From: Lytechinus pictus
Lineage: Eukaryota
Reading direction: 5' to 3'
DNA length: 64,000 bases
NCBI RefSeq assembly: GCF_037042905.1
Contig: NC_087251.1
Coordinates: forward strand, 34,102,001 to 34,166,000
A program made the translations under genes and the position numbers. How positions within the stretch are numbered: the first letter of the stretch is position 1; the number at the start of each line of letters is the position of its first letter. Shown here piece by piece: positions 22,888-39,222 of this stretch. A model generated the notes under the pieces. The model was not told the origin of the DNA. It ran no database searches and saw nothing but the letters and a program-made list of their open reading frames with translations.

Positions 22888-25800
22888 GTGAGTATAATCG
22901 GCCTTTTGAGGGTTCTGTTTATGTTAGACGTAGATCCCAGTCCCACTAACTTATTTTTGCGTTTCTTCCTTTTCTGTATGGTTGGAACTACCCCTTATCG
23001 ACCACCTAATTTTCTAAGCATCGTATCTGCGAAAATATTTATCAGTTTTACCCAGTTTCCGTTTCATTTGTGCAGAAAATTGAGCAGATCAGATTCTCAT
23101 GTTTCGATCGGCGACTCTGATTCAATCCGCGTATATTATATATCAGCGAACAACGAATACGACGATTTTACATAAATTTGCACCTAGACCAAAAGCTTCA
23201 GTCTCTGTAATGTATTTTGGTTGTTCCACTGAACTGCGTTGGCTCCACTCACAATTATAGTAAAATGTCAGATATTGTTAAATAAATCCCCAGAAACGAT
23301 GGTTATTCCTGTCTAATTTGCACCCTTCTTTTGAAACCGACCACCCGCAATAGTTTACGGCCGATTCTTGTGGCGTTGGCGAAATATTTTGACTCTTCCA
23401 AATCAGTTCTATGATATGATGTCAACATGCTATATGATCGTCTCACTACTTCCACTGCGAGCTCCGGCACATGAATCGACGATTGACGACGGATATTTGT
23501 TCTAAAGCCGTTTCCTATCGGAAACGGGGCGGGTTCGGGTCTAGTCAAAACAATTTTGATAAATTTTTACCTTTTTCTCTCGTAAAATCTATTCTTACCG
23601 TTCCTATGGACACTGCGCCTACTCTCCCGCGCGTATCGTTTGTAATACGCAATAATTTTAATGCGCGCAAGGTGGTCGGTTTCAAAAGAGGTGGTCGATA
23701 TGTAGTGGTCTCACTATACTTGTTGAGTGATTCATTGACTTGATACATGTATGATATAATTAAATTCATATGTTACTTTACCATGTAGCTAAACAAGTAG
23801 ACACAGTAAATATTCCATCATTATGAAGGCGTTTGGCATTATACGTTGTTGTAGTCTTTCAGATTTTTTTTTCTTTCCTTTTTTTTCTTTTTTTTTTCTT
23901 TCTTTTTTTTTCTTTCTTTTTTTTTCTTTCTTTTTCTTTCTTTCTTTCCTTTCTTTCATCCATCTTTCTTTTTTTTTTTGTGATGCTGGAAAAGTTTTTT
24001 TTTCCAGGAGACGTTCATCTACAAATACAATACATGTGTAGCATCTTTATAATATTAAGTTAGACAACAGAAATCTTTTTGGAGTTTGGTCTTTAGAGGA
24101 GTTTTACACATTTTATTATGAAGCAAGACATAGTCCAGTTGAACGATAAAATGGACACTGACTCAATATTCTTCATTTTCTTCTCCTTCTCCTCCTTGTC
24201 CTCCTTCACTTCCTCCCCCTTCCCCTTCTTCTCCTTCTTCTTCTTCTTCTTCTTCTCCTCTTCCTCCTTCTTCTTCTTCTTCCCCTTCCCCTCTCTTCTA
24301 TCCTCCTCCCCCTTCTTGGTCTCCTACATGTACTCCCCCTTATCATTCTCCTCCTTCTTTGATTTTCCTATTCTTTCCCCATAGGAGAGGGTTTCCAATA
24401 TAAGTTTTGATCTCTCCTAAATCAGATATTCACCTAATTATTTGTACTAGATCTTTTTTTATAATTGTCATTGAACAGACTAAATTTGAGTTCAATTTAA
24501 ATGGTTTTCCCCTTTTTGCAGGAAGAAGGTGTTAGGCAAGTTCTTGAAGAAATGAAAGCTCTTTATGATCAAAACCAAAGCGATGTGTGAGTATTATTTT
24601 GCTGGCTTTGTACAAACATGTATATGAGACTCTTTTACAATAAAAGTGATTTCAATTTTCAACACACATGACATGAGCATCTGTCACCTAACTTTTGATG
24701 TCTGCATTCAGATTTTTATTGGTACTCAGTAAGATCTCCACTCCCCCTTTCCCCATTACCACCGTCCTGTGCATTTTGGTGTGGTTTGTCAGGGATGCAT
24801 CATACCGGCTATGCTTGTCATAATAAAAAGCAGATATGGCCTCTGGCTCTGTGCGATCCCTTGAAATTTGGAGGGGTTTAAATAATTTATACTGCTAAGT
24901 GCTAACCCGTTGTATAAAACAAATAATGTACAGTTTTCAATTTGACAGAAAAAGTAGTAGGTATAGATTCTGTCTTTCATTATGCCTTGGTGTTTGTTGC
25001 AGAGAGGCGACAGTTCAAGGAGAGAAAGACCGCCTTCCAGCTGTCCAGTTTCGTCACACATGTCTTGAAAGAAACAAGCGATGTCTCCTTGCTTACTTGT
25101 AAGTATCACTCATTCAAACATACAGTAGAGAAAATGTGGATTTGGAATTAGTACCCAATTTATTTCATGCTGGAATAGAAGACTCTGTCATCCTTTCATT
25201 GTTCATTTTTCTATAGGCCTTGGTAATGTAAACACATATGAAATTAATTGCAACATTATGAATTGAAATGTCCAAATATGAATCAAGAATGTTAAAAAGT
25301 TTGTTTAACAAGTATGGTGACTAACAGGATTTGTTTGCAAGACACTACATGACATTACAGAAGCAATGCTATATTTGACTATAATTTATAAATTTATCAA
25401 TATATACTACAAACACTCAATTTGGTAGTTAATTGCCAGTGTAAATGTAACATTTGTTTCTGTACTGATGTTCCCATTTACTAGGCACAACAGACTGTGT
25501 ATGATCCGTGATATGAGATGGGAGTTTGGAAGTGTGCTACCGGCAGAGGTCAAATACAATCTCTCAGAACAAGAGGTAATTATAAATTCAACAAAGTGTA
25601 CTTAGGATTTATCAGATTTATATTTTAGGATAGATTTGAATGTTGACACAGAGTGGTTTATAGAGGGAGACATTCTGTAGATAAGATATTTCTTTATGAT
25701 AGGTTTCTCATTTCATTCCTGTAATAATTTCCTTTTAAATTTTATGTAATCTTTTAAGCTTGCTTCCTTGGACTATTCCCACACCCCAAAGGATTTGCCT

Positions 25801-28800
25801 AAAAGGATAGAGTTACTCTGGAGATAAGATTCAGAAAAGCGTATCATACAGTGCATATAGAAATTAAAATAGTAATGATGATATTCAAGAAAATAAGTTT
25901 AAGGTTCTTTGTTTTTAGGAGCTCAAATTATGTGAAAGTATCTTTCTGAGTTTGTTATGTAATGATGACTATATTACTCTACAGGTGCAGTGGTTTACAA
26001 AGTATAACAAGTCATTGGCATCCTACATGAGAACATTAGGACAGGATGGACTTGATCTCACACAGGTAACATGTTTGTTATGAGACTTATGAGTATCGTT
26101 TATTTTTAATTATTATTTATTTTCATTATTTTAGGCTGCAATTTTCTTAACCCACAAGCTTTGCCTTTTTTAGTTCCCCCATTTCCTTATCTACTTTATT
26201 GTACATGAATGAATTATGGAATATATTTGTCATCTACTGTATTTATTTGTATATTTTTAAGGATTTGAAATGCATTTATATGATCTTATGTGTTGTAAAT
26301 ATGTTTTTTTTTAATGATTTGGAAATAGAGACACTGAATTGAATTGAAATTGTTTCATTATTATTTGTTTACTTTACCTGTGCCTGTGAAATGAAGAGTG
26401 ATATGAATGGTTTATATTCACTTGTTGCTATTGTTGGGTTTTAGTAAGGCACAAATAACGTCCAGATGTGAATATTTATGCCTGGTGAACAAGCAGTTGT
26501 CTACATTCTCAGTTAGTCTCTAATACCACATAGGCAAAACCCATTTGGTCCACTATCACTTTGGTCTAATTGCTGTTTGGTCTACAACCCAAATTATTCT
26601 AATTTTGATCTATTGCCTAGTAGTTGGTCTAATTTCCATTTTATCTCCTTATTATTATTTTTTACATTATCTGAGGAAATATATATCGTAAATAATCCAT
26701 CTAACTTTATAGACTGAGTAGTGTTGGACCAAGTGGATATTAGATAAACTGCCTTACTGAATTATCAGACTAATTGGTACATTGCCTAACTAGCAATCAG
26801 ACCAAATGTTTATTCGATGAACTATGAAAATAATGTGTGGGATGAGACCAAATAGAAAGTAGATGAAAGTAGGTGCAGATCAATTAGCAATTTACCATCT
26901 GAATTACTATAAGGCCCCCCCCCCCAATCCAGTGGGTTTTTTTCCCCTTCACATTGTTTATTGTGATATAAATTAGGAAATGCCCTCTCTGTTAGAAATA
27001 GTGGATAATACGTTTAATTAATTTGCACACAAAGTAAACCTTGATATTGTTGTTGTTGTGCCCATGTATATATTTGAAAATAACGATTCCTGGAAGGCGA
27101 TGTGCCAAGGTGCATTACTCTAGTTGTAATGATTTTAAGAAGTTATGTGATTGAAGGTTAGTCTATCATGCATTTACATGTTCACTTGTTCTATTTCGAA
27201 GATGAGGCAAAGCTGATTTGAGAGTATGTATACCTTACAATAGTATTCTGAGGATGCTACTTCCGGGGGGCGTTTCATCAAACAATTAGTCGGTGGTTTT
27301 CTCCGACTAAATGTGATTTTCACCGACTAATTTCATTTTCACCGACAATTTTGCCATCACCGACTAAATTCCATTTCATGAAAATTTGTCGGTGATTTTC
27401 TCCGACAAATTATTGGAAACCACCGACTAATTTTGTCGGTGGCCTTCACCTACCGACAAAACTTATTTTCACCGACTAATCAGCCTTTTGAGGGCCTTTG
27501 CAGCTAAAATCGATCAATTTCAGTTGATTTTGAATATAACATTTTAATAAATTGCTTATTTTTCATTTCATTGAGAAAATTCAAAGAAAATGTATTTATT
27601 TTTAGTCAATGACAAATAAAAAGTAGACATTTCAAGAATAATATTTTCATCTTTAAAACTATATTATATCAATCAATACATAGGAAACATCTTCAAATGT
27701 ACACATTTTTTCAAACATAATTTTCTTTAACCCAAATAAATCATTGTGCATTTTTTAATCAATAATGTCTGAAAAATGCGACCTCATTGACTTTTGTACA
27801 AGTTTTTTCAATGTTCATTAGTGTTGTTGGTGTTGCTGCTGCTGTTGTCATCGTGATTGCTGGAATTGCTGTTTGTTTTTGCTGCTCTTGGTGTTGTGGG
27901 TGTGGTTGTTGCATCTCCTGGTGCAATTAGTTATTTTTGCTACTGATGTTGCTCAAGGTGTTGCCTGTGTTGTTGCTGTTGTCATCGCTGCTACTGCTGC
28001 TGTTTACGAGTGTGGCTGTTGCATCCCCTGATGCATCTATTGATGTTGTCGCTTGTGTTGTTGCTTGTATGATGGCTTGTTAGAATCCTTGCTGTTGGCT
28101 TTGTTTCTACTGTCGTTGTTGCTACTGCTGTTGATGTTTACCACTGTGGTTGTTGCATCTCTTGATGAAGTTATTTATGTTGCGCCCGATGTTCCCTGCA
28201 TGGTTGTTGGAGCTCCTGCTGCTGTTGATGTTGTCGGTGTGGTTGTTGCATCTCTTACTGCAGTTGTAGTTTCAGCTGCTGATGCTGTTGTTGCTCCTGC
28301 TGCTGTCCATGTTCATTGAAGTAACTAAAATGGATTTAATTTATAGAGCATGTGATATTTTATTAATAAAGATATCAATTTCCATCATTATTGATATCAG
28401 TCATTTATTCTTAATTTAATTATCATGTTAAAACTTACATTTTTTTTATTTCTAATGTTTGAAATAAGAACTTTAAGTTCTAAATGGTTAAAATATTGTC
28501 ACCAAAGCCTTATTAAACAATGAAAACAAAAAAGTTAATAACAAAGAAATGCATAAGAAAATGATTAAAATTTCCTCTTTTTTTATACACAATTGATTTT
28601 AATGACTTGGGTTTTTCTCATTGGTTTACCAAAGAAAGGGAGTCAAAATCCAAAATTATCACATTTGGTCTTTATTTCTTGAGCCAAATGCTGATTTCAT
28701 GCAAGAGTCATGTTATCATATTAAAAAAAACAAAAAAACATCAGGAACAGCAGCATGATTTCTGAAGCGAGTGCACAATCAACAGGCAAGATCCTGAGGC

Positions 28801-31800
28801 ACCCCCCCCCCTACCAAGATCATTTGAATTAAATGAGGTTTCATGACTGCTTTTGTAGGCATTACATTTATACAGGCCTACAAGAGATATAATTTTTTTT
28901 TTTTTTTTTTTTTTTTTTTGGGGGGGGTAATCTTCCAGTGTTACTCCCATACAAAGCAGATGGTGATGGGGCGGGGGGGGGGGGGGTATAATAGGAATGC
29001 AGAACAATGGAACATTCATTTACTACTTTGGCAATAGAAAGCAAGTCACACCATCTAGCATTGATTGATATTGGTTGTTTTACAACTGTCCAATAAATAT
29101 CACCATTAATCAATTAAGCATCTAAGCACTTATAGTTGTCATTGTTTTCAAATATTTGAGTAGACCAAATAAAGAAGAAAGCAGTACCAGTAATTTAATA
29201 TTTTTTTTAATGTGACTTTACTTTCTTCGCCAAAGTGAGGCAGTCATAATTAAGTGTGTTTTAACTTACAAGTGACATCACATTTCCTGCCTTCTTGTCT
29301 GGCTCTCCTAAACCTTCAACCATTTATACTTGTGTAACTTTGTATCTCATGTCTGTCTGAAAAGTTTGGTTGAAGCCTCCACCTGAAGGAAAAATAGTAT
29401 TGAAATAACTAATTAAAATATTTGCCATAATCTGGTATTTCTTCTCACATTTATATGAACATGTCTAAAAACAGGAAATAAAACATCTTTTGATTACCAG
29501 GTTTCATATAGAAGGGGGTAAATAAAGGGTTCAAGTTTTTATTATGTTAATAAAAAATACAAACAATAGTAAATGACATATGCTCTGGCTGAGAAACTTA
29601 AAAGGTGAAATTATTCCTCACAATGTAGCTTGTATGTACATACACATGAGCAAGTAGTGCTAAATGGATTGAGGGGTGAGAGCAGGGGCTCCGGAAACCG
29701 GGGGGGGGGGGGGGGGGGGGGGTGCATGTTAGCTGCAGGGTCAGCGGAACGGTTTTTACAGTGAGCGGGCTGACCATGCATAACCAGATGGTCATTTCAT
29801 ATTTTTCAGCCCCCGCACTGTTTTCCAAAACCATGTACAAAAATGTAAAATTGACCATCTGCTTATGATTTTTTGCATTGGTCAGCCCCCACCCCCCCCC
29901 CCACTTTCGGCTCAGCCCCCTCACTTTCAAAACCGTTCTGCTGACCCTGCAGCTAACATGCAAAATATATTGAATCTATTATGTCTTTCATGCTTATGTA
30001 ATGTTTGCATTTCAAACTGACTTTAAATAGAAAATCTGGTCACAGTCCGATTTCATTGTCATTGATGTGGGTTTTTATGATTTTACATTCTGCAACCAAA
30101 TTTTTTAATCATTATCGCATTTTACTAGTCTACATGTTACCTGTGGTTGCATTTCAATCTCAGTATTTCTTCACCCATTGCCAAATCTTCTGTCACATGT
30201 TCATCAGATTGGCCGCTGGCACATTCCTTGCTGTAGTAGACCAGTCAGAGCCTTGCTTTCTAGTTCCAGATCCGTCTTCTTCTGCATACTGTTCAAATGT
30301 CCATAGTCTGAAATTAAAATATTAATAATATCACATTGTTATACATGTAGCAAAGAAAATATGTAGATTTACAGTGATCATTGAAAAATACTGCACTTTC
30401 AATGAATATTGTTGACATTTCATAAAGGGGAATGATCGAATATACCAATCATTTTTCTTCTTTTATTATCCTGAAATTTATAGAATTTACCAACAATCGG
30501 TCAACAATTTATCCTTGTTAATTCATACAATTTTCACTTGATTATAAACAAGACGGTAATTAACACATTAACCATACAAAATAGTAAAACAGCTTTTTCA
30601 ATAATTTTTTTTTTAATTCAAAAATAAAAACAAAGTTTTTTTCTAACTCAATAGCGCTTGGATACCTTGCCGGTTAAAAGCCACGATCAAATTAATAAAA
30701 AATATGAATAGGCTCCTAATTCATAACTGCAGCAAATTGCATCCCCATCAAACTGTCAACTATTTCTGGACTGTGACCTTTGTTCAATGGAACTTTAATA
30801 TGAGATTCAAGGCAGAAAAATACTTGGGATTGATGAGATCCATTCCATATTCTCCTATATTTTTTTCTAATGAAGAGACCTTTAACCTTTACATGCTATT
30901 TAAGGTTAGGTATGACTAGACTCTAACTTTATGTGGTACGACAGTATTTTTCAAAAAATAGATTAAGAGACATTATCAACAATAATTTAATTTATTTACC
31001 CCAATAACACCGATGCTATTGCAGATTCATGCTAAATAGTAATTTGTCTAAAAAATTGACTTAGAAAAATAAAAGCAAAACAAACTTCATAATCGCACAC
31101 AAATGAAGAGCATTATTTCGTCTCCCCCAAATTGGACGATCAATCTCTTTTTTAAAAGGGAGCTATGCAATGGCTCATTTCACTTAGGTGCGCAAAGTCA
31201 AAGATAATTTAAGATAGATCTAGGCCTATAAGCTATACCAGTACGGCCACAGGCCGGGTGCACTATTTAAAACTTAGATCTAATAATTTTTTTATAGGCC
31301 TATCTAGATTTTAATTTTTATTGGGTGTGAACGCACCTCTGCCACAATCGCATCACCCCCCCCCCCCCCCGAATCCTCGCCAGCTGTCGAGAGCCTTCAC
31401 TTCATTCGACTTGTGACTTGCTAAGGCTAAGCCTACATTAATACTAGTTGAGAACATCCACTTTACAAATTTACCACTCACACTATTAATTACCATGTGA
31501 TTTAGCTCCTGTTCAATTCCAATATCTGTAACACAGAATTAGGATGGCCCCATTGGATATGTGTACATTTACAATTGCACACGCTGGTTTGCCTGGTGAT
31601 CAAGGATATCTCCGACCACACCGAGCAACAAAATTATTACAAAACCAAAGGAAATGAAAAAATATGATTTGCAACATAGAATGACATAAAGGTAGAACAA
31701 TATAAAGAATTCTCTTTGCAAAATTTATAAAATTGCAGCCATGTGCGGATCATAAAAACGTGACAGCCGTGAGCCGTGTCGTTAGTTTGGACCCGAGATA

Positions 31801-34800
31801 GTTCTACAGACACAGAAACACGGGTATGGGACTTGACTGGATTTTGTACTGTCAAGTTCACCGATCGTATCGACAGGGGTCCTGCCAGAAGATCCTCTTT
31901 TCTTGTAATTCATTTGATAATCACGCACAACGAATAATTCAATCACCTTACATACAATATGAAGGATATTTTGAAGGGTTTTACTTACGGTAAAATCCTC
32001 ATTCACCTCTACGAGGACCTTCGCTTCTTCTCATTTCTTCGTTTCATTTCAAATGGTCGCGGCGAAAACATCACCCAATTTTACATCTTTTTCACGACTT
32101 TGGGAGTGGGCGTGGCCTAATTAGTCAGCGAACCTCGTTCAAGACGATTTGTAAAATAAAAATTCTCTGACAATAGTCAGAGGAGCTCCGAGAGTTTGAT
32201 GAAACGCATTTTTGTCAGCGCTGACTAAATTGTCAGCGCTGACAATTTTAGTCAGCGCTGACAGTTGTCGCGCGACAATATTGATGAAACACCCCCCTGG
32301 TATTTGTATGTACTCACAGCTGAGGGCTGTACCTTATTTAGGGATAATCAGGGGGGTGTTTCATCAATATTTTCGTCCGACAACTGTCAGCGCTGACTAA
32401 AATTGTCAGCGCTGACAATTTAGTCAGCGCTGACAAAAATTCGTTTCATCAAACTCTCGGAGCTCCTCTGACTATTGTCAGAGAATTTTTATTTTACAAA
32501 TCGTCTTGAACGAGGTTCGCTGACTAATTAGGCCACGCCCACTCCCAAAGTCGTGAAAAAGATGTAAAATTGATTGATGTTTTCGCCACGACGATTCGAA
32601 ATGAAACGAAGAAATGAGAAGAAGCGAAGGTCCTCGTAGAGGTGAATGAGGATTTTACCGTAAGTAAAACCCTTCAAAATGTCGTTCATATTGTATGTAA
32701 GGTGATTGAATTATTCGTTGTGCGTGATTATCAAATGAATTACAAGAAAAGAGGATCTTCTGGCAGGACCCCTGTCGATACGATCGGTGAACTTGACAGT
32801 ACAAAATCCAGTCTAGTCCCATACCCGTGTTTCTGTGTCTGTAGAACTATCTCAGGTCCAAACTAACGACACGGCTCACGGCTGTCACGTTTTAATGATC
32901 CGCACATGGCTGCAATGTTATAAATTTTGCAAAGAGAATTCTTTATATTGTTCTACCTTTATGTCATTCTATGTTGCAAATCATATTTTTTCATTTCCTT
33001 TGGTTTTGTAATAATTTTGTTGCTCGGTGTAGTCGGAGATTGGCTTGATCACCAGGCAAACCAGCGTGTGCAATTGTAAATGTACACATATCCAATGGGG
33101 CCATCCTAATTCTGTGTTACAGAAATTGGAATTGAACAGGAGCTAAATCACATGGTAATAGTGTGAGTGGTAAATTTGTAAAGTGGATGTTCTCAACTAT
33201 TAATGTAGGCTTAGCCTTAGCAAGTCACAAGTCGAATGAAGTGAAGGCTCTCGACAGCTGTCGAGGATTCGGGCGGGGGGGGGGGGGGGGTGATGCGATT
33301 GTGGCAGAGGTGCGTTCACACCCAATAAAAATTAAAATCTAGATATAAAAAAATTATTAGATCTAAGTTTTAAATAGTGCAACCGGCCCGTGGCCGTACT
33401 GGTATAGCTTATAGGCCTAGCCCTAGATCTATCTTAAATTATCTTTGACTTTGCGCACCCAAGTGAAATGAGCCATTTCATAGCTCCCTTTAAAAAAAAT
33501 ATTGATCGTCCAATTTGGGGGAGACGAAATAATGCTCTTCATTTGTGTGCGATTATGAAGTTTGTTTGGCTTTTATTTTTCTAAGTCAATTTTTTAGACA
33601 AATTACTATTTAGCATGAATCTGCAATAGCATCGGTGTTATTGGGGTAAATAAATTAAATTATTGTTGATAATGTCTCTTAATCTATTTTTTGAAAAATA
33701 CTGTCGTACCACATAAAGTTAGAGTCTAGTCATACCTAACCTTAAATAGCATGTAAAGGTTAAAGGTCTCTTCATTAGAAAAAAATATAGGAGAATATGG
33801 AATGGATCTCATCAATCCCAAGTATTTTTCTGCCTTGAATCTCATATTAAAGTTCCATTGAACAAAGGTCACAGTCCAGAAATAGTTGACAGTTTGATGG
33901 GGATGCAATTTGCTGCAGTTATGAATTAGGAGCCTATTCATATTTTTTATTAATTTGATTGTGGCTTTTAACCGGCAAGGTATCCAAGCGCTATTGAGTT
34001 AGAAAAAAACTTTTATTTTTATTTTTTAATTAAAAAAAAAAATTATTGAAAAAGCTGTTTTACTATTTTGTATGGTTAATGTGTTAATTACCGTCTTGTT
34101 TATAATCAAGTGAAAATTATATGAATTAACAAGGATAAATTGTTGACCGATTGTTGGTAAATTCTATAAATTTCAGGATAATAAAAGAAGAAAAATGATT
34201 GGTATATTCGATCATTCCCCTTTATGAAATGTCAACAATATTCATTGAAAGTGCAGTATTTTTCAATGATCACTGTAAATCTACATATTTTTTTTGCTAC
34301 ATGTATAACAATGTGATATTATTAATATTTTAATTTCAGACTATGGACATTTGAACAGTATGCAGAAGAAGACGGATCTGGAACTAGAAAGCAAGGCTCT
34401 GACTGGTCTACTACAGCAAGGAATGTGCCAGCGGCCAATTTGATGAACATGTGACAGAAGATTTGGCAATGGGTGAAGAAATACTGAGATTGAAATGCAA
34501 CCACAGGTAACATGTAGACTAGTAAAATGCGATAATGATTAAAAAATAATGAAGGATATTGTTTTGGTTGCAGAATGTAAAATCATAAAAACCCACATCA
34601 ATGACAATGAAATCGGACTGTGACCGGATTTTCTATTTAAAGTCAGTTTGAAATGCAAACATTACATAAGCATGAAAGACATAATAGATTCAATATATTT
34701 TGCATGTTAGCTGCAGGGTCAGCAGAACGGTTTTGAAAGTGAGGGGGCTGAGCCGAAAGGGGGGGGGGGGGCTGACCAATGCAAAAAATCATAAGCAGAT

Positions 34801-37800
34801 GGTCAATTTTACATTTTTGTACATGGTTTTGGAAAACAGTGCGGGGGCTGAAAAATATGAAATGACCATCTGGTTACAATTTTTTGCATGGTCAGCCCGT
34901 TCACTGTAAAAACCGTTCCGCTGACCCTGCAGCTAACATGCACCCCCCCCCCCCCGCCGGTTTCCGGAGCCCCTGCTCTCACCCCTCAATCCATTTAGCA
35001 CTACTTGCTCATGTGTATGTACATACAAGCTACATTGTGAGGAATAATTTCACTTTTTAAGTTTCTCAGCCAGAGCATATGTCATTTTTACTATTGTTTG
35101 TATTTTTTATTAACATAATAAAAACTTGAACCCTTTATTTACCCCCTTCTATATGAAACCTGGTAATCAAAAGATGTTTTATTTCCTGTTTTTAGACATG
35201 TACATATACATGTGAGAAGAAATACCAGATTATGGCAAATATTTTAATTAGTTATTTCAATACTATTTTTCCTTCAGGTGGAGGCTTCAACCAAACTTTT
35301 CAGACAGACATGAGATACAAAGTTACACAAGTATAAATGGTTGAAGGTTTAGGAGAGCCAGACAAGAAGGCAGGAAATGTGATGTCACTTGTAAGTTAAA
35401 ACACTCTTAATTATGACTGCCTCACTTTGGCGAAGAAAGTAAAGTCACATTAAAAAAAATATTAAATTACTGGTACTGCTCTCTTCTTTATTTGTTCTAC
35501 TCAAATATTTGAAAACAATGACATCTATAAGTGCTTAGATGCTTAATTGATTAATGGTGATATTTATTGGACAGTTGTAAAACAACCAATATCAATCAAT
35601 GCTAGATGGTGTGACTTGCTTTCTATTGCCAAAGTAGTAAATGAATGTTCCATTGTTCTGCATTCCTATTAGACCCCCCCCCCCCCGCCCCATCACCATC
35701 TGCTTTGTATGGGAGTAACACTGGAAGATTACCCCCCCCCCAAAAAAAAAAAAAAAAATTATATCTCTTGTAGGCCTGTATAAATGTAATGCCTACAAAA
35801 GCAGTCATGAAACCTCATTAATTCAAATGATCTTGGTAGGGGGGGGGTGCCTCAGGATCTTGCCTGTTGATTGTGCACTCGCTTCAGAAATCATGCTGCT
35901 GTTCCTGATGTTTTTTTTTTTTTTAATTTAATATGATAACATGACTCTTGCATGAAATCAGCATTTGGCTCAAGAAATAAAGACCAAATGTGATAATTTT
36001 GGATTTTGACTCCCTTTCTTTGGTAAACCAATGAGAAAAACCCAAGTCATTAAAATCAATTGTGTATAAAAAAAGAGGAAATTTTAATCATTTTCTTATG
36101 CATTTCTTTGTTATTAACTTTTTTGTTTTCATTGTTTAATAAGGCTTTGGTGACAATATTTTAACCATTTAGAACTTAAAGTTCTTATTTCAAACATTAG
36201 AAATAAAAAAATGTTTTAACAATGATAATTAAATTAAGAATAAATGACTGATATCAATAATGATGGAAATTGATATCTTTATTAATAAAATATCACATGC
36301 TCTATAAATTAAATCCATTTCAGTTACTTCCATGAACATGGACAGCAGCAGGAGCAACAACAGCATCAGCAGCTGAAACTACAACTGCAGTAAGAGATGC
36401 AACAACCACACCGACAACATCAACAGCAGCAGGAGCTCCAACAATCATGCAGGGAACATCGGGCGCAACATAAATAACTTCATCAAGAGATGCAACAACC
36501 ACAGTGGTAAACATCAACAGCAGTAGCAACAACGACAGTAGAAACAAAGCAAACAGCAAGGATTCTAACAAGCAATCATACAAGCAACAACACAAGCGAC
36601 AACATCAATAGATGCCTCAGGAGATGCAACAGCCACACTCGTAAACAGCAGCAGTAGCAGCGATGACAACAGCAACCACACAGGCACCACCTTGAGCAAC
36701 ATCAGTAGCAAAAATAACTAATTGCACCAGGAGATGCAACAACCACACCCACAACACCAAGAGCAGCAAAAACAAACAGCAATTCCAGCAATCACGATGA
36801 CAACAGCAGCAGCAACACCAACAACACTAATGAACATTGAAAAAACTTGTACAAAAGTCAATGAGGTCGCATTTTTCAGACATTATCAGACATTATTGAT
36901 TAAAAAATGCACAATGATTTATTTGGGTTAAAGAAAATTATGTTTGAAAAAATGTGTACATTTGAAGATGTTTCCTATGTATTGATTGATATAATATAGT
37001 TTTAAAGATGAAAATATTATTCTTGAAATGTCTACTTTTTATTTGTCATTGACTAAAAATAAATACATTTTCTTTGAATTTTCTCAATGAAATGAAAAAT
37101 AAGCAATTTATTAAAATGTTACATTCAAAATCAACTGAAATTGATCGATTTTAGCTGCAAAGGCCCTCAAAAGGCTGATTAGTCGGTGAAAATAAGTTTT
37201 GTCGGTAGGTGAAGGCCACCGACAAAATTAGTCGGTGGTTTCCAATAATTTGTCGGAGAAAATCACCGACAAATTTTCATGAAATGGAATTTAGTCGGTG
37301 ATGGCAAAATTGTCGGTGAAAATGAAATTAGTCGGTGAAAATCACATTTAGTCGGAGAAAACCACCGACTAATTGTTTGATGAAACGCCCCCCTGATTAT
37401 TTCTACTAGAATTAAACAGCAAAAGACATAATTATAATCATAAATAAAGAAACAACACTTTCCACTAACATGTTTTTGTTATGGTTCATTCAATGATAAA
37501 TTATTTAGGAATTGATATTTCATTTCTTTTCTCTTTCTCCTGGTGTTCATCTCCATTTACTGCTTTCATGCATACTTTATCATATAGGACCGCAGCCCTC
37601 CAAAGAGCCTATACGTAGAGGTAAGATATTATCATATTATATTGAATGCCTTAGAATAGGATTCCAAAAATATTCCACAAGTTAGTATAAAGTATTGCAT
37701 GATTGCAGATGCATTGAATAATTCCATCTCTCGTGGTGTAGTCATAATAATTAAGACATTTTTTTCCGTTTTCAATTAACTTACAAAAAGTGTGTAGTGT

Positions 37801-39222
37801 TTTGACGTTGTTAAAATATATCGTTCCTTGATTTTATTACATGGAATGTGTATGCGCTCTCTCTCTCTCTATATATATATCAAATTCATGGGGATTACTC
37901 TAGAGCTGTAAGTACAATGAGGGTAAATGGATGCACACAAACAAATGGATATTAGTATATACTGCATTACTCTGAATCCATACGGCAGATTACTTTGAAC
38001 CATCCTATGGTATCGCACATCAACTTTTGTATATACAGGCCTATTGGGAAGTCATCAGGTTTTGCTGCATCTTGCAATTAGCTCTGATAATTTCCTAATC
38101 TTAATAGTATAAATGTATTGCTTTTTGTGTTTGATATATATAACCTTATCTTTCCCATTGTTCATTATTTTCTGTAGGTAAGGTGCTTGATGGATTATGG
38201 TGAATTTGAGACAGAAGATGGCAGTATGGTGGTACTAAAGAAAAATAGTCAGGTAATTCACATTTTCTCTTACAGATTAAGGTTTCTCAACAAGCAAGGT
38301 TTTCGAGGACACCAAATAAAGACTCTTGTTGGAAAGGTTGATGTCCATGAAACTCTTCTAAAAGGTGACAAATTTTTGTCATTTTGTTCAAGCACCTCCA
38401 CCATGTGTTTGAACATGTAATAAACACAAAGATTAAGTGGTGTTATGAAAAGTCCTTCCTCCGTGATGTGTTTTGGAAAATTGGATTTGGCTGTAATTAC
38501 ATTTTTACTTTTGTTTCCTTGGATTCATTAATGTAAATGAACAGACTTATGTATTTATTCATTTGCATCTATACATATTGATGTATATTTATACATATAT
38601 ATATATATATATATATATAAATATATATTTCTCTACATCTTTGTTTAAGGCAGATTTTTTGTCTTTACGTCTATATGTGAATTATGACGGAATTAACCCA
38701 TTCAAAGACCTCGCCCTTGCGTAGGATGTAGGCATATATATATATATATATATATGTGCCTACATCCTACGTAAGGGCGAAGTCTACGAATGGGTTTATT
38801 CCGTCAGGATGTAGGCATATATATATATATATATATATATGCCTACATCCTACGTAAGGGCGAAGTCTATGAATGGGTTTATTCAGTCTTAATACACATA
38901 TAGACGTAAAGACGAAGGTAGAGGGCGTTAAGGCGCATTATGCACATTGAAAGAAGACAAAAAATTCGCCTTAAACACAGATGTAGAGAAATATATATAT
39001 TTTTATTATTACAAGTATATATTTTAGTTATCAATTCCTTTGGTTTTATGATTTTGTTATTAAAGTTTATTAATGTATATAAAAATTAGTAAGTGTATGA
39101 GACCATGAGGTTCCTGCAAGTTGATTTGGTTTGTTTTATCTGTTTTCCCGCAGCATTTTCTTCTGAGATCTCTTTGCGAGCCTCTGATAAGACAAGGTAT
39201 CCTAGAGCATATTATGTCATGA
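22813..39222 (+). CDS. GINS1: DNA replication complex GINS protein PSF1, join(22813-22887,24522-24586,25003-25098,25485-25575,25985-26065,37588-37620,38178-38252,39154-39222), 194 aa
   Basis: Spliced translation: MFGEKAIELIHELQRAVNGSLAPFN EEGVRQVLEEMKALYDQNQSDV EATVQGEKDRLPAVQFRHTCLERNKRCLLAYL HNRLCMIRDMRWEFGSVLPAEVKYNLSEQE VQWFTKYNKSLASYMRTLGQDGLDLTQ DRSPPKSLYVE VRCLMDYGEFETEDGSMVVLKKNSQ HFLLRSLCEPLIRQGILEHIMS*. All introns are GT-AG with consistent phases (585 nt total). Confidence 0.95.
22987..23711. mobile_element. TIR element (MULE-like?) in GINS1 intron 1
   Basis: actaccccttatcgaccacct is inverted with aggtggtcgatatgtagt; internal gaaaccgaccacc/ggtggtcggtttc pair. No TSD recognised. 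Confidence 0.45.
23864..24360. repeat. Polypyrimidine low-complexity tracts ((TTTC)n, (CTT/CCT)n)
   Basis: Seen directly at 23864-23980 and 24168-24360. Confidence 0.85.
24522..24586 (+). CDS. GINS1: GINS1 exon 2
   Basis: tttgcag|EEGVRQVLEEMKALYDQNQSD(V)|gtgagt. Confidence 0.95.
25003..25098 (+). CDS. GINS1: GINS1 exon 3
   Basis: ttgcag|...FRHTCLERNKRCLLAY(L)|gtaagt. Confidence 0.93.
25485..25575 (+). CDS. GINS1: GINS1 exon 4
   Basis: actag|HNRLCMIRDMRWEFGSVLPAEVKYNLSEQE|gtaatt. Confidence 0.95.
25985..26065 (+). CDS. GINS1: GINS1 exon 5
   Basis: ctacag|VQWFTKYNKSLASYMRTLGQDGLDLTQ|gtaaca. Confidence 0.95.
26533..26897. mobile_element. Degraded MITE with TTGGTCT/AGACCAA internal repeats
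   Basis: The left half is rich in ttggtc(t/c)a and the right half in (a/g)gaccaa, giving an imperfect foldback. Confidence 0.5.
27820..28320. repeat. GTT/GCT-rich low-complexity tract inside the Harbinger-like element (mirror at ~36324-36830)
   Basis: Seen directly. It produces the spurious V/A/L-rich and Q/T-rich ORFs. Confidence 0.8.
29682..29961. mobile_element. Small hAT-like MITE nested in the Harbinger-like element (mirror at ~34700-34975)
   Basis: 34-bp inverted repeat tgcatgttagctgcagggtcagcggaacggtttt / aaaaccgttctgctgaccctgcagctaacatgca. Present in both arms. Confidence 0.6.
32351..37393 (+). mobile_element. ~5.04-kb decayed Harbinger/PIF-like element, copy 2 (right arm of the giant inverted repeat)
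   Basis: TIR GGGGGGTGTTTCATCAA...TTGATGAAACGCCCCCC with palindromic flanks ATAATCAG / CTGATTAT. Transposase-like relic at 34340-34506. Confidence 0.85.
34340..34506 (+). pseudogene. Decayed exon resembling a Harbinger transposase N-terminus (mirror in copy 1 at ~30141-30307)
   Basis: Bounded by tttcag and gtaaca. With frameshifts it reads RRRRIW/TRKQGSDW...ASGQFDEHVTEDLAMGEEILRLKCNH, resembling RRR.W.R.RS.DWW...F....W.ENFRMS.ETF..LC of HARBI1-type transposases. Judged by eye. Confidence 0.4.
37588..37620 (+). CDS. GINS1: GINS1 exon 6 (33-nt mini-exon)
   Basis: catatag|DRSPPKSLYVE|gtaaga, carrying the conserved PPKSLY motif. Confidence 0.93.
38178..38252 (+). CDS. GINS1: GINS1 exon 7
   Basis: ctgtag|VRCLMDYGEFETEDGSMVVLKKNSQ|gtaatt. 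Confidence 0.95.
38628..38991. mobile_element. Foldback element embedded in (TA)n with internal (TA)n loops
   Basis: tttctctacatct.tgtttaaggc is inverted with gccttaaacacagatgtagagaaa. AGGATGTAGGCA(TA)nTGCCTACATCCT occurs twice. Confidence 0.75.
39154..39222 (+). CDS. GINS1: GINS1 exon 8 (last coding exon)
   Basis: cccgcag|HFLLRSLCEPLIRQGILEHIMS* (TGA 39220-39222). Confidence 0.95.
   Translation, partial: HFLLRSLCEPLIRQGILEHIMS

Follow-up and report, generated by a model that had tools for sequence, protein, structure and literature searches.

Two separate insertions of a Harbinger-type element as the probable source of a 10-kb palindrome in a GINS1 intron of Lytechinus pictus

Introduction

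Inverted pairs of Alu elements in human introns, with arms of ~300 bp that are 10–15% diverged, are substrates of ADAR. They are one of three described systems that come closest to the subject of this study, a 10-kb palindrome formed by two facing copies of a transposable element, which we assign to the Harbinger type, within an intron of the GINS1 gene of Lytechinus pictus. The palindrome lies in a stretch of 64,000 nucleotides (NCBI RefSeq assembly GCF_037042905.1, 811.7 Mb in 368 contigs; contig NC_087251.1, C7:34102001-34166000 in our coordinates) that we refer to as the window, and positions are counted from its first letter. The second system is Mu killer of maize (PMC3440606), an inverted but incomplete duplication in which transposase-gene sequence is present and for which silencing activity has been shown genetically. 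The third is the zebrafish pair Harbinger3_DR and Harbinger3N_DR. The palindromic target described for Harbinger3_DR is AAACACCWGGTCTTT (PMC3016246), and vertebrate PIF/Harbinger elements are described as having a 15-bp extended target preference (PMC2836001).

The locus in Lytechinus resembles each of these systems in part. With Harbinger3_DR and Harbinger3N_DR it shares a C-W-G-centred, partly palindromic target (AAACACCWGGTCTTT in zebrafish vs A-Y-C-W|W-G-G-T-C-W here; PMC3016246), short terminal inverted repeats (TIRs), non-autonomous derivatives that far outnumber coding copies, and a transposase of the DDE_Tnp_4 type, found here in longer relatives of the element. It differs from them in its host, in non-autonomous copies that measure 5 kb rather than being the size of MITEs (miniature inverted-repeat transposable elements), in that no Myb-like ORF1 was recognised in 12.6 kb of one longer copy, and in a flanking C-N-G whose middle base can differ between the two sides of a copy. 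Like Mu killer, it consists of inverted transposon sequence exposed to read-through from a host promoter, with a potential hairpin RNA of several kilobases (PMC3440606), but it appears to be made of two independent, whole insertions of a non-coding derivative in an intron. Its likeness to inverted Alu pairs lies in two apparently independent insertions of opposite orientation in a host intron and in the intramolecular double-stranded RNA that may result, whereas its arms are 5 kb long and only 1.2% diverged, and the potential duplex is longer and nearer to perfect. The locus belongs to known kinds: its family is non-autonomous and of the Harbinger type, and its palindrome is of the intronic sort that insertions build.

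Results

The palindrome is real in the assembly. A repeat search returned colinear inverted-repeat blocks running from 27262-27775/36883-37396 inward to 31489-32299/32349-33159, with the long blocks at 97–100% identity. The left arm (27265-32297, plus strand, 5033 bp) and the right arm (32351-37393, minus strand, 5043 bp) are copies of one element, the left apparently the older and the right a young member of the same family, and each has its 5' end facing outward. Their 3' ends face each other across 53 bp of unique, non-palindromic intron sequence (32298-32350), which shortens to 49 bp if the C-N-G trinucleotides at 32297-32299 and 32349-32351 are counted with the arms. Aligned with MAFFT, the arms have 4934 matches and 61 mismatches, which is 98.8% identity over aligned bases, and differ by 21 indel events totalling 96 nt; with gaps counted, identity is 96.97% (blastn).

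Both arms terminate in GGGGGGCGTTTCATCAA...TTGATGAAACACCCCCC, and identical ends bound 27 other full-length copies in the same genome. In the left arm the 5' TIR and its subterminal CACCGAC/GTCGGTG repeats occupy 27265-27480 (plus strand; mirror at ~37178-37393), with nine copies of the motif in the first 212 bp. The 3' subterminal region (32214-32297, plus strand; mirror at 32351-32434) carries a palindromic 12-mer, GTCAGCGCTGAC, three times, followed by the TIR. A preliminary description, drawn from the letters of the window alone, had proposed reverse-complement arms at these positions with a ~53-bp spacer, each arm a complete TIR-bounded element, and the repeat search, the MAFFT alignment and the shared termini bear it out; the alignment also supplies the arm identity that it had left to be measured. 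The individual differences that it had listed are likewise there: the mirrored open reading frames (ORFs) read QNILHI and QNVVHI, two 6-bp indels and an 8-bp indel fall on the right arm at 33346, 33426 and 34884, and an insertion placed near 34550 is 16 bp long at right-arm position 34563. The inverted-arm unit is not repeated elsewhere in a whole-genome search for TIR pairs within 300 bp, so that the palindrome does not class as a foldback-type mobile element, and a scan of the window against Rfam at gathering thresholds gave 0 matches.

Relatives of the arms are found across the genome. A genome search with the outermost 1 kb at the left arm's 5' end gives at least 45 matches, most of them at 91–99% identity, with 40 of 114 first-look candidates scored. 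In the whole genome the 17-nt TIR, GGGGGGYGTTTCATCAA, occurs 398 times, compared with a single occurrence of the reversed control, a count that suggests about 200 elements. Of 37 loci taken from the genome, 27 proved in a terminal-motif search to hold a full-length copy of 4755–5419 bp with the same termini as the arms. These copies and both arms make up a 29-row alignment.

Comparison across this alignment shows that the two arms have separate ancestries. The right arm is 0.16–0.52% from 12 copies on other contigs. No copy comes closer to the left arm than 0.88%, and the right arm, at 1.28%, is its 11th-nearest neighbour of 28. The arms differ in the alignment by 64 substitutions, of which 26 are near-private variants of the left arm, two are near-private to the right arm, and 36 are shared with other copies. 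Singleton substitutions number 15 in the left arm and two in the right. A quick maximum-likelihood tree (IQ-TREE) places the left arm with two other copies (L036 and L042) in a 3-row clade (Shimodaira–Hasegawa-like approximate likelihood ratio test, SH-aLRT, 95), itself nested in one of six rows (97). For the right arm the corresponding nested clades have 11 rows (SH-aLRT 99) and 13 rows (100), and the end branches leading to the left and right arms measure 0.0051 and 0.0006. Forcing the arms together makes the tree 170 log-likelihood units worse and is rejected by the approximately unbiased (AU) test (p 3.0e-5). Because the arms fall in different clades and their pairing is rejected, the palindrome appears to be two independent insertions and not an inverted duplication, and the left arm probably inserted first. 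The preliminary description had instead proposed an inverted duplication of one element of the Mu killer type, a proposal that the well-supported separate clades and the AU test contradict.

The host gene is GINS1 (PSF1). The exon upstream of the intron (25983-26065, plus strand), at whose first base a spliced contig starts, encodes ..QWFTKYNKSLASYMRTLGQDGLDLTQ, and the 27 amino acids of 25985-26065 match residues 111-138 of human PSF1 (phmmer against PDB, E 2.7e-6). The intron itself has GT..AG ends, spans 26066-37587 on the plus strand (11,522 nt) and contains both arms. The next exon (37588-37625, plus strand), identified by translation and by the splice joint, reads DRSPPKSLYVEVR.., and one contig (X5) departs from the window sequence at 37625. 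Without both insertions the intron would be about 1.44 kb long, close to the ~1.4 kb that had been estimated at the outset, and the PSF1-matching exon, the GT..AG ends and the splice joint described below confirm the earlier placement of both arms in an 11.5-kb GINS1 intron.

Transcription across the intron was followed in four public runs aligned to 25800-37800. Two of these consist of contigs (X1 and X5; X1-X8 are contigs of unrecorded or guessed kind) and two of total RNA depleted of ribosomal RNA (rRNA; X20 and X21, with ~6% of each run read). A joint at 26063->37586 (cut +2) that skips 11,522 nt occurs in all four runs, with 19 raw reads in X20 and 30 in X21, and the first mate at the joint is on the minus strand, a pattern that fits plus-strand RNA. 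This joint implies that GINS1 is expressed, that RNA polymerase II (Pol II) traverses both arms, and that splicing takes the intron out at its normal GT..AG sites. In the two total-RNA runs, sense depth over unique intron sequence is 0–0.24x, vs ~36x at exon position 26023. No joint that removes exactly one arm is among those listed for the RNA reads and contigs over 25800-37800.

Two observations concern the remainder of the gene. A few reads antisense to GINS1 cover 26201-26601 in both total-RNA runs, and all of them carry 26551 C>T and 26559 C>A (8/8 and 14/14), which suggests other-strand transcription of an allele or of a paralogous repeat. The next GINS1 intron contains a small foldback-like element at 38597-39022, composed of nested inverted repeats with (TA)n cores, with 111-nt arms at 92% and 69-nt outer arms at 83%.

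The arms are non-autonomous and hold no transposase sequence. Not one of the 131 left-arm ORFs of at least 24 aa, taken from both strands and searched at E up to 0.01, reached a Pfam cut-off, and 21 arm ORFs of at least 45 aa, searched at E up to 1, gave only chance-level Pfam matches below the cut-offs. As the arms have no recognisable coding capacity, their classification relies on their ends and their relatives. Not every locus that starts with the family 5' end carries on as the 5-kb element, and at one of those that do not (L018/L028) an exon lies ~5 kb inside an element that starts in this way. We take this exon to be putatively HARBI1-like, Pfam having given no match for it. It has 146 genome matches, and five of the ten closest (on C16, C9, C11, C18 and C3) lie in elements with the family 5' end. 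Over its first 2414 bp the C9 copy has 96.6% identity to the arm, and the arm positions shared, up to 1-2566, look non-coding. This copy also contains a piece of DDE_Tnp_4 (PF13359) at L035:2201-2353 on the plus strand (E 1.1e-9, 38.5 bits, cut-off 24.8), 1.5 kb downstream of the presumably HARBI1-like exon and on the same strand, the gene being seen as pieces only. The DDE piece is the one Pfam match among 126 ORFs of L046 and L035, and no Myb-like ORF1 was recognised among them, in a search that covered 12.6 kb of this one copy and stopped short of its 3' end. No 3' TIR lies within 9.9 kb or 12.6 kb in the copies on C16 and C9 that bear transposase sequence.

Other candidates for coding copies were sought by TIR spacing. 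Long copies found in this way (16 kb on C4, 11 kb on C1, and one on C5; L021-L025) contained no convincing transposase ORF of at least 110 aa and were set aside.

The flanks of the copies add to the family assignment. Across the 29 copies the flank consensus is A-Y-C-W|W-G-G-T-C-W, with A at -4 in 15 copies, C at -3 in 17, C at -2 in 28, G at +2 in all 29, G at +3 in 16, T at +4 in 22 and C at +5 in 18. This pattern matches the Harbinger3_DR target and the extended preference beyond the target-site duplication (TSD) described for vertebrate elements. Taken with the DDE_Tnp_4 piece in longer relatives, it upholds the Harbinger label first given to the element, and a PIF/Harbinger-type family is supported.

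A C-N-G trinucleotide bounds the copies on both sides once their outermost G and C are assigned to the flanking sequence; for the arms it lies at 27263-27265/32297-32299 and at 32349-32351/37393-37395. Its middle base agrees between the two sides in 17 of the 29 copies, vs ~37% expected by chance. A simple 3-bp TSD was not accepted as shown, owing to the discordant middle base in the other 12. The copies are 0.2–1.5% diverged, with a few up to 6.5%, and point mutation is therefore an unlikely cause of the discordance. PIF/Harbinger excision is described as precise (PMC2836001). One idea is that an excised element may carry overhangs from its donor site that are ligated at the new site in the manner of piggyBac, which would leave one donor-derived and one target-derived copy of the C-N-G.

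Further features of the family were seen in passing. A joint at 32659->34340 (plus strand, right arm) and its mirror at 30307->31989 (left arm) are present in the X5 (depth 345) and X1 (depth 108) contigs. They skip 1680–1681 nt with GT..AG ends on the bottom strand of the element, and the GT..AG pair on the right arm lies in the sense of GINS1. They reflect either a spliced family transcript that starts near the element's 3' end or a subfamily with a deletion; a gap of 1680–1681 nt is absent from all 29 full copies. A GCT/GTT-rich low-complexity stretch at 27800-28320 (mirror 36320-36860) is open in several frames, its ORFs of 45–94 aa being rich in Cys/Leu/Val or in Thr/Ala and without Pfam match, and the same stretch is present in the transposase-bearing C9 copy.

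The arms can pair with each other in RNA. The central 851 nt of the palindrome fold at -726.9 kcal/mol (z -87) and, with the splice joint that spans the intron, this agrees with the initial proposal that a GINS1 pre-mRNA carrying both arms can fold into a near-perfect duplex. Few reads derive from the arms themselves: most arm bins are at or below 1.4x in the two rRNA-depleted runs, even when summed over all paralogues. A>G and T>C together make up 5 of 22 listed changes in X20 and 4 of 21 in X21; these types are not in excess, but an arm depth of ~0–1x with ~200 paralogues mixed is too low for any judgement on editing. Two peaks of depth, at 28968-28986 and 33271-33290, have poly-G loose ends and were read as artefacts.

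Discussion

We consider it likely that the palindrome is a by-product of two independent cut-and-paste insertions that the host tolerates, with no selected function. The ancestral GINS1 intron would have been ~1.44 kb long, and a copy from an older lineage, the left arm, would have entered it first. The right arm would have followed later, during the most recent burst of the family, turned the other way round and 49 bp past the first copy's 3' end. Each copy would have entered a C-W-G-centred, partly palindromic target of its own. Pol II now traverses both arms, and the whole 11.5-kb intron is spliced out at the normal GT..AG sites. In the pre-mRNA or the lariat the arms presumably pair, and they probably do so without selected function.

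Several points weigh against this account. No independent read or contig among the 16 pieces listed crosses the spacer, and the central junction consequently rests on the assembly alone. At the left edge, the X1 (26193-27294) and X5 (26943-27294) contigs enter the TIR by 30 nt, where the threshold set was 31. The middle bases of the arms' own C-N-G trinucleotides differ (CCG/CTG and CAG/CTG), which would speak against clean target-site duplications were the same not seen in 12 of the 29 copies. The AU test was named after the distances had been seen, which weakens its p-value somewhat and leaves the picture unchanged. The lack of function, moreover, is argued from lack of evidence. Finally, if ~199 elements had inserted uniformly over 811.7 Mb, ~0.003 pairs would be expected within 53 bp, and something beyond chance may be at work in the 49-bp spacing.

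A preference for certain targets, and the open chromatin of a gene that is expressed, would raise the expected number of pairs. Two family TIRs no more than 300 bp apart, in any orientation, occur in the whole genome only here and in one cluster of small MITEs on C9. The ORF1 protein is described as binding Harbinger TIRs and interacting with the transposase (PMC2836001), from which it may be supposed that it also binds the subterminal CACCGAC/GTCGGTG repeats. An incoming element may then be attracted to a resident copy, for example via proteins on these repeats, which is a guess from one case.

In the C9 cluster (L027, G000:C9:25346000-25346800), at ~270-610 of the locus, three MITEs of ~170 bp with a related TIR (GGGGGGCGTTTYATGAAAGG...) lie end to end, with single CCG or CAG trinucleotides shared between neighbours. 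From the sequence of the cluster, members of this TIR group seem to land again at precisely the target trinucleotide that adjoins a resident copy.

Among other explanations, the one that survives best, though we regard it as unlikely, is that the palindrome acts as a host-driven hairpin silencer: duplex RNA transcribed from GINS1 would be diced or fed into the PIWI-interacting RNA (piRNA) pathway and would silence the family in trans through the shared 2.4 kb. The splice joint places both arms on one RNA, and the central 851 nt fold strongly. Targets in trans exist, as arm positions 1-2414 are 96.6% identical to a transposase-bearing element. The right arm belongs to the youngest clade, which would date the hairpin to the last burst, and the family is nearly silent in the two rRNA-depleted runs. 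A precedent is at hand in Mu killer (PMC3440606). The likeness to Mu killer drawn in the preliminary description does not hold, however, at the level of sequence, for coding sequence of a transposase or of ORF1 is missing from the arms (0 of 131 ORFs at a Pfam cut-off) and the structure does not appear to have been made by duplication. Near-silence, moreover, is the default for most transposon families, and the intron is removed efficiently, as the fall from ~36x on the exon to 0–0.24x indicates. Most intronic inverted repeats are not known to have a silencing role. The stronger claim, that a natural equivalent of maize Mu killer exists here in an animal, is slightly less likely again; on this claim each GINS1 pre-mRNA of dividing cells would have carried a 5-kb near-perfect duplex from the arrival of the second copy onward, and small RNAs from it, acting via the 2.4 kb in common with transposase-bearing copies, would have helped to end the latest burst of the family, to which the right arm itself belongs. 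Should the hairpin feed small-RNA pathways, the locus would be one of few natural examples in animals of a trigger against a DNA transposon that a host gene drives, and small RNAs could be assigned to it by the 61 substitutions that separate the arms and by the 15 singletons of the left arm.

An assembly artefact is highly improbable. Palindromic artefacts are known in long-read assemblies, and a chimeric fold-back read, or two haplotypes joined head to head, could turn a single real copy into a palindrome; that no read among those listed crosses the spacer would accord with this. A fold-back read would, however, give identical arms and no spacer. The arms here are separated by 61 substitutions and 21 indels that track the family phylogeny, each has complete termini, and the 53 bp between them are unique and non-palindromic. 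Since the differences between the arms follow two dispersed clades, and given the complete ends and the unique spacer, an artefact is disfavoured.

Local inverted duplication of a resident copy, by aberrant or alternative transposition or by template switching and followed by divergence or gene conversion, would suit the closeness of the arms and has a parallel in the alternative-transposition inverted duplications described for maize Ac/Ds (bioRxiv 10.1101/2020.01.07.897926), but it is scarcely credible here. A sister relation of the arms is rejected by the AU test (p 3e-5), a copy on another contig lies 0.16% from the right arm where the left arm lies 1.28% from it, and both arms have complete ends, each with the flank pattern usual for the family.

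Two independent insertions remain the account that we favour, and on that account the locus offers a clean, well-dated example of a long palindrome in an animal genome that would have arisen by repeated insertion and not by duplication. It also presents an essential replication gene that splices out an intron lengthened eightfold by a 10-kb insert able to form a hairpin. The copies gathered here, in turn, define a young family, apparently of the Harbinger type, with a target like that of Harbinger3_DR.

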